From NCBI GenBank assembly GCA_977017645.1, contig OZ360242.1:30194001-30258000 (forward strand): a stretch of DNA of 64,000 nucleotides, given 5' to 3'. The position numbers were made by a program, and so were the translations under genes. The notes under the pieces were generated by a model. That model worked only from the letters and a program-made list of their open reading frames with translations. It was not told the origin of the DNA and made no database searches. This stretch comes from Torpedo marmorata (lineage: Eukaryota). The number at the start of each line of letters is the position of its first letter. Position 1 is the stretch's first letter. Shown here one piece after another: positions 42,835 through 54,626 of this stretch.

Positions 42835-43008
42835 ACTTCATGAACTCAAAGTATCAATGCGATGGCAGAATGCTCAGAGAGCTTGGTTAGTCTCATTGGG
42901 CTCAATGGCCTCTTTCTATGTTGTAAGGAAATATAACATTTGTTGGAAATATTCTTTGTCTTAAATGACATTTGCTCTGTCATTTTTGGAGTAATGCAGT
43001 TTGCAGAT

Positions 43009-43588
43009 TATAGTGACTTCAATCCAACAATAGTCACTTGGAGGCTAGGTGAGATACTTGTTTTTGACGCATTTCAATTAATTTACTGACAAAGTCCTAT
43101 ATGTTCAAAAAACTTTATTTACACACGTGACTTGCAGCAATCTTCAATGACTTAAATATCTTCTTTAAACAAAATAAACAGTTCTTGATAACGAGGTTTA
43201 ATATATTCCTTTAAACGATTCCTTTGATTGTATTTAGACGTTCAATGTAATGACTTTAAACCATCAATGAAACAAGTTTAAATGTTCAATGAAACGGTCA
43301 ATAAAAGATATGGTGATCTCACTCACCCTCCTCTAAGCTGCCATCTTTTTCCAATACTTTTTCCCGATTCGCGCATGCTCAATACGCATATCCCACCACG
43401 CACACTCCACCGCGCACACTCCACCGCGCACACTGCCGTCAATTCCAAACTGCGCATGCGCCCGTCGGCACTCTAGCGCATGCGCAGAGTACTAAATAGG
43501 CCTAGCACGGCCTACAAACACCGCGACTCCTCCGTAACCCGCCGAGAACATCGGAGCGCCGCGACCAAGGTAAGTAATCAAGCCTACA
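43009..43588 (-). repeat. 3' LTR
   Basis: Minus strand TGTAGGCTTG...GTCACTATA. About 15 substitutions and 4 indels relative to 48252-48835 (~97%, counted by eye). Confidence 0.95.
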
Positions 43589-43784: not shown

Positions 43785-43967
43785 TCAAAGTTCCTCCGTC
43801 TCCAACAGAAGGCAGACCTTGTTAATGGGTCTATTTAGAAAGCCAGTCTTAGTTCTAATTCGAACTTGACGCACAAGTCCCCTTTTGTCCTGAATAGTCT
43901 CAATAATTTTTCCAAGTAACCAGAAGTTTCCTGGAGTTGAATCGTTCACAATAATTACAGAGTCTCC
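43785..43967 (-). pseudogene. BEL/Pao polyprotein C-terminal remnant (post-integrase, DUF5641-like)
   Basis: My translation: GDSVIIVNDSTPGNFWLLGKIIETIQDKRGLVRQVRIRTKTGFLNRPINKVCLLLETEEL*. Confidence 0.85.
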
Positions 43968-44344
43968 TCAAAGTTCTTTTATCTCCAGAATCTTTGAGTT
44001 AAACCGTCGACCAGTAAACCTCAAATCTTCCTCAGACAAAATAGATACAGTTTTTCTTAACACGAGGCGCTTCTTCAGCATGTCGTTTTACTTTATTTCT
44101 TTCTTCAGTATTCCACTTCTCACGTGAAGAATTTAAACTCTTAGAACTAGAATTTGAATATTTATCTGATCCTTTCGATTTTAATAAACGAGTCTCTTTA
44201 ACCACTGGTTTCTATTGCCTTTTCCTGCAATTCCAAATCCAATTTTGCAACTTTCAATTCAGTCTCAGTTCCTTCCGAGAAATTAATAACTTGATCTGAA
44301 ATCAAAATATTATGTGATACTTTGATATTTCTATTGTCAACCCT

Positions 44345-44652
44345 GCTGTGGTAAACTTGAAATTTTTGAATTTATTCATCTTGCTTGTTACATTTCTGCA
44401 ATGCAATATCACTTTCTTTCTGCATTGTTAATAGCTGAACATTCAATTTACAATCTTGATTGTTTTTTGTAATCAACTGTTTTGTGTTATTAACCAATAA
44501 CTTGTTCTCTTTCAATATATTAATCTCTTCAACCTTTTACATTTTGATAATGCTGAATCTCTTTCCTCAATAACTGTATTCATTTCTTCAGCAGTTATTC
44601 TTTTCTTCCGCTTTCTGACTTTGCGAGTTTTACTTACAATTAAATCTTTCTG
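44345..44652 (-). pseudogene. MIPOL1: Captured MIPOL1-like coiled-coil fragment inside the LTR element (one frameshift, one stop)
   Basis: KKRITAEEMNTVIEERDSALSKCKRL / EEINILKENKLLVNNTKQLITKNNQDCKLNVQLLTMQKESDIALQKCNKQDE*IQKFQVYHS aligns with recalled MIPOL1 KMRITAEEMSALIEERDAALSKCKRLEQELHHVKEQNQTSANNMRHLTAENNQERALKAKLLSMQQARETAVQQYKKLEEEIQTLRVYYS. Confidence 0.8.
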
Positions 44653-44783
44653 TTTACTGTTTTCATGATTATCTAATATTTCCAATTCCCCTTTCAACAT
44701 TTTGTTCTCTGAATTCAATTGCATTAAATTATCATTCACATTCTTCTTTATTCCATCAGCACAATTTCTTGTGTTCTCCAGTT

Positions 44784-46046
44784 TTACATCACATTGCAAT
44801 ATTTCTTCATTGACTTTGCTGTAACCTCCGAACTACAAAATCTACTTTCAAATTTGTTTTCAGTCACTTGTTTTATTCCTATATCTGATTCAATTACACA
44901 GGAATAATCACTAGTATTATTTGAAACATCTTCTAATACTTCATTTTTATCCATTTCTGATGAACATAATTCCTTCAATGTTGTTTTAAATACCTTTGAT
45001 TTATTTTCACATTGATCTGTTTTCTTTTCTTCAAAAGTGATTTTCTTATACACATTTTTTTGCTCTTCCCTGAACTCATCAACTTTCACAACCAAAATCC
45101 TGTTAATATTTATCGCTAACTGTTCCTGAGCAATATCATTATTTCTTTCCAATGGTCTATTGATTGTCCAACCAAGCTTGGTTCTAATAGCGTAAGGTCC
45201 ATTCCTTCTACTCTGTATTACTTCTAGTGGTTCCAAAACCTTTGGCACATCTGAACCAATCAGCATTTCTATCTCAGAATTAATTTCAGGTAAATAAACC
45301 TTCCACAGATAAGCTAAATGATGGATATCATTTTGATGAGGAATATTTCCTTCATGTACAGGCATAGTCTTCTGAGTATATAACATTGGAAGATCACAAA
45401 ATTTTTTGTCATCCAATCCAGCAACCTCTAAGCCTGAAACAATGCTGGTTTCAACTACCTTTTCTTGTCCCATGGTTTTTAACATAATTCTTGACCTTCT
45501 TCCTTGAATATTAAGTTTGTTCATTAGTCCTTCTGTGCAAAAAGATGCAGTGCTGCCTGGGTCTAGAAATGCATATGTATGTACTGTTGCATCCCCTTTC
45601 TTGGTGTTGACTTGTACAGGCACTATCGAAAGTTTGCAGTTATCTATACCAGCCCCGGTAAGACCACTTGTCTGAACCGAGGTTATAACATTATTTTCTG
45701 TTGTTTCCTTTGTTTCTGTTTGCTCCTTTTCCAATTCCTTGTTTCTTTGATGGATATGCAAAATTCTAGGATGTTTCAAATTGCATATGTTACAATTAAT
45801 TCGCTTCTCGCAGTTTTTACTGATGTGCCCTTTACACAGATAGCTAAAACATATTCCATTTTCCTTTAAGAAAGCGATCTTCTCATTATGTTCCTTCTTT
45901 TCCAATCGTAAACACATTTCCAAAGCATGTCCACCTTTAGAGAACAAACAACTCTTTTCATTAGGCAAACTTTCCTTTTCCTTATTTACTTTGTCCTTTT
46001 CTTTATTTATAACTGACACATTAGTAGCAAAAGTACTCCTTTTCAA
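44784..46046 (-). pseudogene. BEL/Pao Gag Cys-His knuckles and aspartic protease, followed by non-RT sequence
   Basis: CFSYLCKGHISKNC, CNICNLKHPRILH, protease YAFLDPGSTASF, LIGSD and PYAIRTKLGW. Confidence 0.9.
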
Positions 46047-46053
46047 TTTCGGA

Positions 46054-47058
46054 CTAGTCTGAGTTAGACCTCCTTACATCTTTGCCCATTGAATTGTCTC
46101 TGGTATTTCCATATATTGGATCTGTTTCAATGTACACCTGTCGTTCAAGAAAATTTACCAAATCCTTTAAGGTAGCTCTTCGACTGTAATTTTCTTGTAA
46201 ATCACAAGCCAAATTTCTCCATCTATCCCACAACTTGTAAGGTAATTTTTCTAAGATGATTCGCATATTACCAGGCACTTCAAGCTCACGAATATTATCG
46301 ATATCTTCCATGGCATTACAACATCCACTTAAAAATAGAGTATATTCTTGTAGCGCCTTTACATCATTCTGTTTTATTGATGTCCATTTAAGAGCTTTAT
46401 CCATATAAGCTAAAGCAATTCGATGCTTGTTGCCAAAATGTTGTTCAAGTAAAGTCTTAGCTCTGTCTAATCCTCTTTCTGAGGACATATGTTGACAACT
46501 TTTTACAAGTTCTTTTGGATGTCCCTTTGTGAACATTTCCAAATAATAAAGACATTCATCACGATCTTGGCATTTATTTTCAATATTGCGTTTGAAACAT
46601 CTCATAAATGATTGGTACTGAAGTGGATCACCATTAAAAGTTTGTATCTCTTTCTTGGGTAAAGAAGAGAGAGACTGTAACTGAATCAATGATGCAGCAA
46701 TTTCATTTTGTCTTCCCTTGGATGACAATACATTGCTCTGTTCACCGCCTCTTGTTACAGGTAATGTATCTGGAAACCTCACTGGTGTAGTTTCTTCCAT
46801 ATTTTTGATGCTTGACTCAAATAACAAGGAAGCTGCATCGTTCGACCGAACCCATGCCGCAGCTTTGTCTTCATGTGTTATCACTGGTACATGTGACTCG
46901 ATACCAATTTGCTCTTGAAGGATTTGTCCTTGTATTTTCAAGTTTTGTACCCCTGTTTCTAAAATATCTACTCTTTTGGTTGGTTTCTTTTCCTGTGACT
47001 CTTTTTTTAAAATGTGACCTTTTATTATCAGACACTTTGGATAATTTACTTTGAGCAC
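46054..47058 (-). pseudogene. BEL/Pao Gag capsid-like region (DUF1759-type)
   Basis: LPKKEIQTFNGDPLQYQSF...LYYLEMFTKG.PKELV...ILEKLPYKLWDRW...LVNFLERQ...DPIYG is typical of fish BEL gag. Confidence 0.9.
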
Positions 47059-47791
47059 CAGATACTATTGAGCCTTCTATTGCTTTCTTTCTGGCTATGG
47101 CAATAGCAATATCTGTTTTCAGCTCATGCTGCTCTTTTCTCTTTCTTAGCTGCTCTTGTCTCTTCCTTAGCTGTTGGCTTTGTCTTAGCTGCTCCTCCTG
47201 TTGTCTCTGCCTTAGCTGTTCCTTTTGTTCTCTTAGTTCCTCCTCCTGTTCTTCTAAAATATGTTTATCCTTAAGAGAATTTTGTTGTGCAAGAAGAGCG
47301 GCCAATTTAACATCAATCATTGTATGTGACGATGCAGAACTTGAAGTACGAGAAACTCTGGAGCTCGAACCAGAACTTCATTTGCTTCTCCTGCTTTCAG
47401 CATTTGAGACACTGTCACTTGCTTGTATTTTGTCCTGCACATCATATGTTGTCTTCATACTTACCTCCTTCACAAATTCGAATGGTACATCCTTTGCATC
47501 TTCATCCTCTTCATTTTCTTCATCCTCTTCATTTGGTGACACAATTTCAGCCATTTCTACATTATCTTCTTGTTCATCTAACAAAGCCGCCTCTTCTTCC
47601 TTTGCCTGCTTCAATCTTGTGATGAGAACCTTTTTATTTCCACTTATATCTTTTCTCAGTCGCTTCAATTCTTTTTTAATATCCGCAACCTTCATGTCTT
47701 CAATACGTTGGTCCTTAACAGTAACATCAGCGGTTGCTGTGTCAGCTGCTGATACATCAGTGGCTACTACATCAGCGGCTGTTGCGGCCAT
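46871..47791 (-). pseudogene. Gag N-terminus: SAP domain, acidic tract, Ser-rich segment and coiled coil (one in-frame TGA at 47378-47380)
   Basis: ORFs 47378..47878 and 46871..47320 share a frame. Likely start ATG at 47791 (AAAATGGCC). SAP motif at 47600-47704; BEL-like SDSVSN and KDKHILEEQEE motifs. Confidence 0.8.
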
Positions 47792-48251
47792 TTTACTCGT
47801 CTTGTTCCACTGTCCTTCAAGCATACACAACACTAGCCAAATCAACATTTCCCAATGGACTAGCGGCAGCAAATCCAATCTGTGTTTTAACTTGCCAAAG
47901 ATACACAGAAGGAGTCCACAGACTTATATGCCTACCACTTCAGATGACTGTAATGTGCTGCTATTCACAAACGAGTTTCAACCACAACATCCGTCAATAA
48001 TATCGCTGATTTTCCAAAAATGGTTTCTCCAACGTATTTATAGTACACTTTACTATAAGATTTGAAGCTTTAAATCCCTCTCTGGCTGTTACTCATGGCA
48101 GATGGATGTGGATTACAAACTGCCCCCAACTCGAGGCATCTCCAAGATGGCCACCATTTTATTTTAAATATCAGTCCAAAGCACAGAGAGGTTATTCTAT
48201 CTTCTTTCCTTCAATTTTCTGTTCCAAACATCCACTTTTATTGACTAATTA

Positions 48252-48835
48252 TATAGTGACTTCAATCCAACAATAGTCACTTGGAGGCTAGGTGAGATAC
48301 TTGTTTTTGACGCATTTCAATTTATTTACTGACAAAGTCCGATATGTTCAAAAAACTTTATTTACACACGTGACTTGCAGCAATCTTCAATGAGTTAAAT
48401 ATCTTCTTTAAACGAAATAAACAGTTCTTGATAACGAGGTTTAATATATTCCTTTAAACGATTCCTTTGATTGTATTTAGACGTTCAATGTAATGACTTT
48501 AAATGACTTTAAACCATCAATGAAAGAGTTTAAATGTTCAATGAAACGGTCAATAAAAGATATGGCGATCTCACTCACCCTCCTCTAAGCCGCCATCTTT
48601 TTCCAATACTTTTTCCTGATTCGCGCATGCTCAATACGCATATCCCACCGCGCACGCTCCACCGCGCACACTGCCGTCAATTCCCAACTGCGCATGCGCC
48701 CGTCGGCACTCTAGCGCATGCGCAGAGTACTAAATAGGCCTAGCATGGCCTACAAACACCGCGACTCCTCCGTAAACTGCCAAGAACATCGGAGCGCCGC
48801 GACCAAGGTAAGTAATCAAGCCTACGGCTCTTACA
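48252..48835 (-). repeat. 5' LTR
   Basis: Minus strand TGTAAGAGCCGTAGGCTTG...GTCACTATA; direct repeat of 43009-43588; two GCGCATGCGC (NRF1-type) motifs. Confidence 0.95.
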
Positions 48836-48951
48836 CAGATAGAGGAGCAATTAAAAGCACACCTCTGCCTTTAACAGTATACATACAGTATGTACTGTAT
48901 ATACCTGTATCCTGGGAAACAAATCAATTAATTTCATTTCAAATTGATGAT

Positions 48952-50117: not shown

Positions 50118-50519
50118 TAGGGTTAGGGTTAGGGTTCAGGTTAGTTTGTCAATATGCAGGCAGCAGGATAATCATCCCTCTTGTGTTCACTGGTCTCCTC
50201 TCTCAGAGGTTCTGTGTCACTATAAACTGCCACTTTTGGTTGGCCCATGCTTTCATTACCCTGTGCCTGTTTCTAGCTCTTAGTGGGATCAGTTGTGCAT
50301 TTTGATATGTCCTGGGGTAAGTTTATTGTCTGCATAGTGGGTGACCTTATATTCACATGTTAGGGTTAGGGTAAGGTGTGGGATTTTGGATAGGGTTAGG
50401 GTTAGGGCTATGGTTGGGGTTCTGGTTAGGGTTAGGCGTGGGGTTCAGGTTAGGATTAGGCGTGGGGTTAGGGTTAGGGTTAATGATAGGGTTAGGGTTA
50501 GTGTTAGGGTTAGGGTTAG
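50118..50519 (+). repeat. Interstitial telomere-like (TTAGGG)n arrays, degenerate
   Basis: Short array at 50118-50143 and a longer degenerate array at ~50360-50519. Confidence 0.9.
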
Positions 50520-50538
50520 CGACCCACAGCAACAGAAA

Positions 50539-50725
50539 GCAGGCAGCGAACCGCTGGGACAGAGCGGGACAGCGGACTGCGGGAGAGAACAGGCAGCGGA
50601 CCGCCGGGACAGCGGGCTGCGGGAGAGAGCAGGCAGCGGACTGCCGGGACAGAGCGGGACAGCGGGCTGCGGGAGAGAGCAGGCAGCGGACCGCCGGGAC
50701 AGCGGGCCGCGGGAGAGCAGGCAGC
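50539..50725. repeat. GC-rich minisatellite with alternating 50- and 40-bp units
   Basis: Units at 50539-50588, 50589-50628, 50629-50678 and 50679-50716, plus a partial unit. Confidence 0.9.
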
Positions 50726-52705: not shown

Positions 52706-53254
52706 TGAATTTAAAATAAAAAAATAAAATTTTTTTAAAAATTCAATATGGTTTATAAAATGCTATTGGTAGTTTGGTAACTGTGGCTCCCAGATACAAA
52801 AAATGGATCTGACAAATGGCTGTGTGCAGTGTACCCTAGTGATCTGATTATGGTTTCAGAGCATTTTGTCCAGGACCAATTTAGGATAAATTCCTGCATT
52901 GAATACAGGGGTCTCCAATTTCTCACAGTACAAAGCTCCGAGTAGGTGCGTCAAAGCAATGCAATCACAGAGAGCCAGTTGTCAAGTGATGTTGCTGAGG
53001 AAGGTGTAGGGAATAGGTTCATCACACTGGGCATTGGAGATAATGGCTAGGCCATACAACAGCACCATGACACAATAATTAACTCTTTAAACACTGGATT
53101 GGAGAAAGGGATTGATATTGAAAGTCTGAACACAAATACAGTGGTGATACATTAAAGAAGAGGTTAGAGAAGTCCACGAGGGAGAAAGCATCAAAGGTTT
53201 ATGCTCATTAGTTGAGGATGTGGGACAGAATTGCCAAATTAAGTCAGGAGAAAA

Positions 53255-54089
53255 TTCAAGATTCAAGATTCAATTTATTGTCATAGTAATAAGACAGTGT
53301 CATATTCCATGAAATTTCTTTTTGCCTGCTGCAAGGCAGATAGATTCGCCACCGGCAGAAATTGCCTAAGTGCCTCTAACATTCCTTACAGTCAGAGAAA
53401 GAGAAGCAAAAGAGAGTCCCCCCAGAGTCACCGAGTGTCCGTAGATTCCACAGCCTCCGCAGCCACACAGAGTCCAGTCCAAACCATCGGCATCCCGAGC
53501 TACAGATCCGAACCTCTAACACGGTCAGGTTGCCCTCGGCACCCCCTCGCATCCCGGTTCCGATACCTGGTACTCCTCCAGCCAGTTCGAGCCAGCCTCC
53601 AGCAGTCCGCAGCCCGGCGTGAGTCCCCCGACAGCAGTCTCCAGCAGCCCACAGCCTCCGCGGGTTCCTCGCCTCGAGTCGCCAGCAGCCCGCCGCATGC
53701 ACTGATCCTTTAGCCTCAGATTCCCCTCACCGGTCCGCCGCCGTGGTCACCGTCCCATGGGCTGTCTCCTCCGCTTCTTCCTCTCAGACGGGGGGGTGAT
53801 CTTCCCGTCCTCTGGTGCCCTGCTCCAGTCCCCCGCTTCCCTGGAATCTGCAGCCCCTCGTGGCTGTTGCCGGTTAAAAGGCGCTGTCATCTTGGGTGCA
53901 GACCCCGCGGTCGCGGGATCTTAAATAAAACCACCGTCGGCTCCTTTAACGGGCCGTTCAAAGCCTGTGCGGAACCGACAGCAGTCGACTGGTCCCCGCG
54001 GGAGCGCTGTATCTCTGCTCCCAAGCTCCCCGCGGGTCTGCACCAGTGGCAGCACTGCCGCTACAGCGGCTCCGGCAGCGCCGCCATTC
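53255..54089 (-). mobile_element. Non-coding non-LTR retroelement with GC-rich 5' region and (TTGAATC)n tail
   Basis: Minus strand starts GAATGGCGGCG and ends AATAAATTGAATCTTGAATCTTGAA. No recognisable protein. Confidence 0.7.
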
Positions 54090-54130
54090 CAGAATTAAAT
54101 GGTGGATTAAGATTGATGCGCAAAATCTTA

Positions 54131-54312
54131 ACTTGGTGACTCTGGGGGGGATTCTCTTTTGCTTCTCTTTCTCTGACTGTAAGGAATGTTAGAGACGCTT
54201 AGGCAATTTCTGCCGGTGGCGAATCTGTCTGCCTTGCAGCAGGCAAAAAGAAATTTCATGGAATATGACACTGTCTTATTACTATGACAATATATTGAAT
54301 CTTGAATCTTGA
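54131..54312 (+). mobile_element. Second, truncated copy of the same 3' end in inverted orientation
   Basis: Near-identical reverse complement of 53255-53436. Confidence 0.9.
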
Positions 54313-54626
54313 GTTTCAAGAAAGATTTCAAACAAGATTGCTGAAAGATGAAAGGCTTTACAGGGTAGCCCTGGAGCATGGATGAAGAAACACTCATCAA
54401 TGCTGAGGCGAAGAAGAGTACAGAAGAATTCAGCAGAGGGGAGAAGATTACACAGGGAGGTTGCAAAGTTTGTAAGCAGAGGAAGTTATAGATAAGGACA
54501 TAGGTAAAGCCATGTAACTATATCAATACAAGAGTGAGCAATCAATTATTTAAAATTTGGTTTCAAAAAGGAATTTAAAAAATAAATGATTGTTTTGAAG
54601 CTAGTAAATTTATTACTTTTCAAAGA

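Follow-up and report, generated by a model that had tools for sequence, protein, structure and literature searches.

A SAP domain from host SLTM at the start of Gag in a BEL/Pao retrotransposon lineage of Torpedo marmorata

Long terminal repeat (LTR) elements have gained accessory domains such as a chromodomain, an extra RNase H and an AlkB demethylase; retroviruses transduce host genes, and some Gag proteins carry chromatin tethers, such as p12 of murine leukaemia virus (MLV). This report concerns a BEL/Pao LTR element of Torpedo marmorata whose Gag begins with a SAP domain from the host gene SLTM. The element lies in a stretch of 64,000 nucleotides (GenBank assembly GCA_977017645.1, contig OZ360242.1, positions 30,194,001 to 30,258,000 of the forward strand), called the window below. 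As in retroviral transduction, an intronless host coding sequence is fused in frame to gag; unlike there, the element has no envelope, and the host piece lies upstream of gag and supplies its start. MLV p12 offers a parallel for a possible tether on Gag, tethering being in the present case a possibility only.

Capture of host RNA by LTR elements is already known, and the Torpedo case is a new, unusually well-preserved variation. LTR-mediated retroposition in animals has been surveyed, with cases from the Pao element BATUMI and from BEL18_AG alongside maize Bs1 (Tan et al., 2016; PMC5131818). In the accessible part of that text, the retrocopies resemble the Torpedo case in their spliced host RNA, sense orientation, more than one donor gene per element, and secondary amplification with shared switch points. 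They are treated there as non-autonomous and low in copy number, with one to five for Bs1 (PMC5131818). The SLTM piece, in contrast, opens full gag-pol frames, supplying both their start codon and their first domain, and its lineage likely numbers tens of thousands. LTR elements with accessory domains likewise hold the extra domain fixed in an autonomous polyprotein (PMC6338049, whose accessible portion mentions neither SAP nor BEL nor Pao); the Torpedo domain differs in sitting at the Gag N-terminus, with donor gene, intron loss and intermediates all in the same genome. SAP domains also occur in Zisupton DNA transposons and in a Chlamys Penelope-like element, which are mobile elements of other classes for which the available text names no host donor (PMC8557442). 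The donor found here belongs to a family reported to repress retrotransposons: A-rich RNA from transposons is bound by SAFB1, SAFB2 and SLTM, which hold down both L1 and LTR elements (PMC10901741). The literature search returned no report of SAP or SLTM capture by BEL/Pao, and none of an autonomous, highly amplified LTR lineage in which a captured domain has become the fixed start; subscription journals, supplements and Repbase lay outside it, and an annotated consensus may exist there. As a rule, retroelements acquired their extra domains too long ago for the event to be followed. With donor, splice scar, both junctions and graded copies in one genome, the refitting of a host domain becomes measurable branch by branch.

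A spliced SLTM 5' end at the Gag N-terminus

The window copy is a BEL/Pao LTR element of about 5.8 kb on the minus strand, with the SAP domain as its first coding part. Its start is made up as follows:

47792..47822, minus strand: 5' untranslated region (UTR) from host SLTM exon 1, by alignment (0 of 200 shuffles reach the score, z 4.5)
47606..47791, minus strand: ATG, Ala-rich start (a short-repeat expansion) and SAP core, from SLTM exon 1
47590..47605, minus strand: first 16 nt of SLTM exon 2, fused to exon 1 without the intron, 14 of 16 matching
47381..47589, minus strand: acidic and Ser-rich BEL linker, including a likely remnant of the native N-terminal helical domain; frame stop at 47380-47378

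The original prediction, made from the letters alone, placed a SAP motif at the Gag N-terminus. Its peptide is present on the minus strand from an ATG at 47791-47789, and the Pfam hidden Markov model for SAP (PF02037) scores residues 30-63 (nt 47704-47603) at 35.8 bits, above its cut-off of 23.9 (E 5.8e-09). The predicted structure is the SAP helix pair, with a predicted local distance difference test score of 91 over residues 31-60; a Foldseek search with this model returns SAP proteins in its top rows, none of which reaches E 0.001. A search by the window peptide alone returned no longer homologues. The same prediction had SAP and an acidic tract in frame with gag motifs. In the window copy the acidic tract follows SAP, but the frame is broken by the stop at 47380-47378 and by shifts near 47,000-47,060 and 46,060-46,070, and the DUF1759 capsid and protease lie in frames other than that of SAP. 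The in-frame fusion stands in family copies L031, L097 and L098.

Several lines of evidence identify SLTM as the donor. In a library search with a profile of ten element SAPs, multi-SAP proteins dominated the results, hence domains were rescored one by one; among the outside single domains (268 proteins), chimaera SLTM comes top with 68 and 63 bits, followed by an unnamed SAP-RRM protein (60 bits) and the best SAFB (57 bits). A genome search with chimaera SLTM finds an element subtype of up to 82% protein identity, and the host SLTM gene itself is located on contig C68. All 15 SLTM-like copies fetched share 79-90% DNA identity with host exon 1 over 170-190 nt. In the oldest copies the match starts 38 nt before the ATG and runs into the first 16 nt of exon 2, which are exact in 12 of 14 copies and match at 15 of 16 positions in the remaining two. 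The start of the intron would match at 5-6 of 16, and over the next 14 nt the match to SLTM drops to 3-6. The SLTM intron (1,184 nt, GT-AG) has thus been removed at the exact exon junction, so the source was spliced RNA, and since host SAFB1 and SAFB2 have an intron at the same place, the SLTM gene is the donor and the flow ran from gene to element. The segment, from 38 nt of 5' UTR through the spliced junction, is common to the whole lineage; the UTR, the junction and the sharing go beyond the original prediction. GC boxes lie directly upstream of its 5' junction in the host gene, which suggests that this junction may be the SLTM transcription start.

The proposed capture of an SLTM 5' coding end, start codon included, is therefore borne out at the DNA level in exon 1 and spliced exon 2, and an origin of the SAP domain from SLTM is nearly certain. 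SAFB was considered as donor on account of a GNK motif in intermediate copies and was ruled out by the DNA, UTR and exon-2 evidence; host SAFB1 exon 1 shares 98% protein identity with stingray SAFB1.

An ancestral place of SAP in BEL Gag, which would have undone the proposal, finds no footing among relatives: SAP is absent from all 44 close BEL polyproteins of other sources (best profile score 0.3 bits). Among the relatives listed, the closest start instead with a common domain of about 106 residues that is probably helical. Just past the junction, the oldest copies keep a short match to this native domain, and the rest of it is missing. In pairwise tests with 1000 shuffles each, the match was equalled 0, 0, 1 and 14 times for the closest relative (P0269), 10-405 times for P0270 and 3-28 times for P0272, while the native-domain profile scores at most 6.8 bits on element copies. 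The match is likely a remnant of the helical domain, judged from these alignments, and with the rest lost, SAP likely sits where most of the native domain was.

Copy types and their spread in the genome

The window copy is linked to the oldest copies by a graded series. SAP identity to SLTM is 0.93 in the oldest, near-host type (14 copies), 0.85 in 1 copy, 0.76 in 4, 0.68 in the window type (11), 0.66 in the young type (12) and 0.59 in the A type (8), and in every group it exceeds identity to SAFB1, SAFB2 and the hnRNPU-like gene. At third positions, window-type copies are 0.59 identical to SLTM, against 0.18, 0.40 and 0.18 for SAFB1, SAFB2 and the hnRNPU-like gene. At residues shared with SLTM, the window copy uses the identical codon at 11 of 20, against 7.2 expected from element codon usage (p 0.035), and has no such excess for SAFB; in two intermediate copies the excess for SLTM reaches p <= 0.0001. 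Closeness to SLTM at silent and non-coding sites is strong in the old and intermediate copies, weaker in the window copy and marginal in the young ones.

LTR divergence orders the types from near-host through window to young: the two LTRs mismatch by 6.0-10.5% in the oldest type (4 of 14 copies with both LTRs), by 2.5-6.2% in the window type (9 of 11) and by 0-2.6% in the young type (12 copies). In gag and reverse transcriptase (RT) trees the window/young clade branches from the fork of the oldest type. The SAP tree climbs the same ladder as the identity steps, and its best version joins element SAPs to SLTM (88/99).

The lineage is large. A genome search with the SAP region gave 4,812 first-look candidates, and among the matches listed, 39 others are 94-95% identical to the window copy. 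Of ten copies fetched whole, four align with it end to end, four as two pieces, and two are truncated. With the Pfam SAP model, 29,045 first-look candidates appear, and nine of the ten best loci are BEL copies of other subtypes. The sole non-element locus among those ten is a host exon with an N-terminal SAP (L023:814-1692, minus strand), which we take to be hnRNPU-like. Six element-borne SAP matches in 780 kb of DNA fetched for other purposes scale, roughly and from few regions, to a likely copy number in the tens of thousands. Such copies overwhelm any search of this genome for SAP or SLTM, and annotation could mistake them for genes.

Some members of the lineage keep long frames. In a sample of 20 loci, picked from 150 Pao RNase H matches for a long frame or a top score, SAP is present at 17; it is absent from one divergent family, and two loci are interrupted before the N-terminus. 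Copy L031 holds SAP and DUF1759 in a single 693-residue frame, and five copies (L097-L101) have frames of more than 2,000 residues. The two of these that were scanned (L097 and L098) show SAP, capsid, RT, the Pao RNase H region (Peptidase_A17) and integrase in order in one frame, and thus have the BEL/Pao one-frame layout of gag (DUF1759, Cys/His motifs), protease, RT, Pao RNase H (Peptidase_A17), integrase and DUF5641. Together with these frames, the LTR pairs of L097-L101, only 0-1.2% apart, indicate recent transposition of the lineage. Contigs from four sequencing runs, one of them possibly of RNA, cover parts of a young copy and show neither expression nor species range.

Constraint on the SAP domain and competing accounts

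Between the oldest and young types, pS in SAP is 0.70 and pN 0.25; ratios over the same span are 1.18 and 0.95 in linkers, 0.30 in the capsid, 0.27 in the protease and 0.10 in RT. The SAP of the window copy has 38 base changes and 16 residue changes. Neutral simulations that allow for bias in transitions, CpG and AT give about 21 residue changes, and 0, 1 and 1 of 150 runs go as low as 16. Residue changes fall below neutral in the window, young and A types.

These observations are best explained by a BEL/Pao lineage that carries the spliced 5' end of SLTM as the start of its gag-pol frame, likely through one template switch, and whose SAP likely binds nucleic acid on Gag, a reading that as a whole we consider moderately probable. 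Spliced SLTM RNA (38 nt of UTR, the ATG, SAP and 16 nt of exon 2) would have joined the element by template switching in reverse transcription, probably in a single event, and most of the native helical domain would have been lost around that time. The constraint on SAP may reflect DNA or RNA binding, in genome packaging or chromatin tethering. The window copy is a decayed member of a non-autonomous branch, in which back-spliced MIPOL1 RNA likely replaced pol at a later point. Taken by itself, a nucleic-acid-binding role for SAP on Gag is somewhat favoured by the sequence comparisons, and chromatin tethering is doubtful.

A bolder account, which we put forward tentatively as falling a little short of an even prospect, would have the element take the DNA-binding domain of its own suppressor family as a working Gag part in place of the native N-terminal domain, binding chromatin or the genome, with the full series, from near-host copies to intact young ones, preserved in the genome; the lineage would later have packaged and fixed a host circular RNA, which would show how circular-RNA copies arise by template switching in LTR particles.

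A number of results weigh against the favoured reading. A pre-capture copy was not found in the genome with one N-terminal query (0 of 53 candidates), a search that does not show absence. The codon test is weak in the window copy and non-significant in a young copy (p 0.09), and the UTR signal is absent in three of eight A-type copies and spans z 1.5-3.7 in young ones. Although the best SAP tree places element SAPs with SLTM, with 108 nt it rejects neither a grouping with SAFB (p-AU 0.25) nor a placement of the later types beside the hnRNPU-like gene (p-AU 0.58, at slightly better likelihood). In the RT tree the A lineage falls outside the oldest type, and in the protease tree that type stands as a sister group instead of an ancestor; these conflicts allow recombination or two captures. 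As to constraint, one intermediate copy has no clear deficit of residue changes (9, 3 and 16 of 150 neutral simulations reach its count), and silent divergence in SAP is close to saturation and made larger by the change from GC-rich to A-rich sequence. Of the 15 changes on the step to the window type, 12 are non-synonymous and 3 synonymous (ratio about 1), and a loop Leu is lost there, which may mean weaker or altered binding. No clear AT bias appears in insertion flanks (0.61 AT, n=19, against a background of 0.59), for which reason tethering is rated low.

The SLTM origin could hold while selection acted on the host translation start and a stable N-terminal fold, late-type SAP no longer binding nucleic acid. 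The captured ATG opens the sole long frame in young copies, and the window-type branch, with its lost core loop Leu, and the unbiased insertions fit this account as well. Yet the UTR itself decays in young copies, SAP stays below neutral in three types, its basic residues are kept or gained (12 Lys plus Arg against 8 in the host SAP), and two separate lineages retain it, all of which makes the account unlikely. Two captures, in which an older SLTM SAP led to the window, A and intermediate types and fresh SLTM RNA later gave the near-host type through homology-guided replacement, appear quite improbable: the near-host type has the most diverged LTR pairs, one intermediate copy changes stepwise rather than as a mosaic, and the upstream and downstream junction context is common to all types, even if the position of the A type in the RT tree, the differing shapes of the gag, protease and RT trees and the unfixed root of the SAP tree would suit such a history. 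The donor would be SLTM under one or two captures alike.

The reported binding of A-rich transposon RNA by SAFB1, SAFB2 and SLTM, and their suppression of L1 and LTR elements, invite a further idea, namely that SAP, as a decoy or competitor, counters repression of the element's RNA by the SAFB family, the element being rich in A (35-38%). This is very improbable, the RRM and ER-rich parts named in the accessible text (PMC10901741) not having been captured; closeness of the SAFB family to element RNA could, as a conjecture, explain why SLTM RNA was at hand. Convergence of a generic transposon-borne SAP on SLTM is already largely refuted and barely credible. It draws on the SAPs of Zisupton and the Chlamys Penelope-like element (PMC8557442) and is not rejected by the SAP tree; against it stand the non-coding UTR match in the right place, the 14 of 16 exon-2 bases in the window, the third-position identity of 0.59 to SLTM against 0.18-0.40, the graded intermediates and the 44 relatives that all lack SAP.

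Anatomy of the window element and a MIPOL1 capture

The remainder of the window copy comprises the following features:

48836..48840, minus strand: left copy of the 5-bp target-site duplication, bases identical to 43004-43008
48252..48835, minus strand: 5' LTR with TG...TA ends, 2.5% mismatch with the 3' LTR
48549..48559, minus strand: 11 nt in mid-LTR complementary to the primer-site position (sequence complementarity)
48235..48245, minus strand: primer-binding-site position, complementary to LTR 48549-48559 (sequence complementarity)
46216..46638, minus strand: Gag capsid region, DUF1759 (E 3.7e-07)
45162..45611, minus strand: aspartic protease region, DUF1758-like (E 0.012, under the curated cut-off), aligning to open-frame copy L098
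44346..44664, minus strand: MIPOL1 exons d (part), e and f, intronless, where RT, RNase H and integrase are expected (81-87% DNA identity)
44205..44345, minus strand: MIPOL1 upstream exons a (start) and b (part) behind exon f, with a back-splice-type junction at 44346/44345 (74% and 90% identity)
43785..43967, minus strand: C-terminal pol stub, DUF5641 (E 9.9e-12)
43009..43588, minus strand: 3' LTR, preceded by a polypurine tract (LTR comparison)
43004..43008, minus strand: right copy of the 5-bp target-site duplication, identical to the left copy

Profile scans found no RT, RNase H or integrase core in the window copy, which is non-autonomous. In window-type copies, 1.1 kb in place of pol resembles MIPOL1 (score 0.96 to MIPOL1 clusters). 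The host MIPOL1 gene lies downstream of FOXA1 on contig C40, with exons at about 64.39-64.59 Mb (L143, L151, L154, L164). In the window, exons d, e and f, which lie about 29 and 78 kb apart in the host gene, follow one another without a gap. Behind exon f comes exon a, located about 206 kb upstream of it in the host, and the two are joined in frame at exact donor and acceptor sites. The order d, e, f, a, b is found in 11 of 13 copies scored, exon a being undetected in the other two. The 330 kb downstream hold no second host copy of exons a or b, only element copies.

Reversed exon order at exact splice sites fits reverse transcription across a circular RNA junction, and on this pattern the piece was likely taken from a circular, back-spliced RNA; trans-splicing is a live alternative for the junction. 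The MIPOL1 piece is in frame with gag-protease in some copies. Its divergence is near neutral (pS 0.15, pN 0.13 over 145 codons), and it looks like a passenger. Pseudogenes derived from circular RNA have been described, for example from mouse circRFWD2, with the mechanism left open (Dong et al., 2016; PMC4897178). In the accessible text these share with the MIPOL1 piece a reverse-order exon junction at splice sites, many copies and an LTR association. The MIPOL1 piece differs from them in lying within a complete LTR element of a cartilaginous fish, where it replaces pol, and as a back-spliced RNA inside a whole LTR element it bears on how such copies arise (PMC4897178). What remains of the pol-replacing filler (44665-45100 and 43970-44204) is matched neither by open-frame relatives nor by the MIPOL1 exons identified; copies L040 and L031 have it as in-frame coding sequence, and it possibly represents further host captures.

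The 5-bp target-site duplication is found in the window and in 13 of 19 copies. LTR ends are mostly TG...TA; among the 13 copies whose duplication is clear, 12 close in TA and not in CA (in the window at 48252 and 43009). The primer-site position shows complementarity to 9-14 nt of mid-LTR in 15 of 17 copies, among them the window copy, L082, L085, L098-L103, L105, L109, L111 and L116. Both complementary sides co-vary over five sequence variants, which makes this pairing a candidate for Tf1-like self-priming in a BEL element.

Outside the element, the window holds a degenerate (TTAGGG)-like interstitial repeat at 50359-50531, followed by a 40-bp GC-rich tandem repeat at 50534-50713. At 53252-54316 lies an element of about 1 kb that resembles a miniature inverted-repeat transposable element, with 172-bp inverted ends that are 97% complementary.
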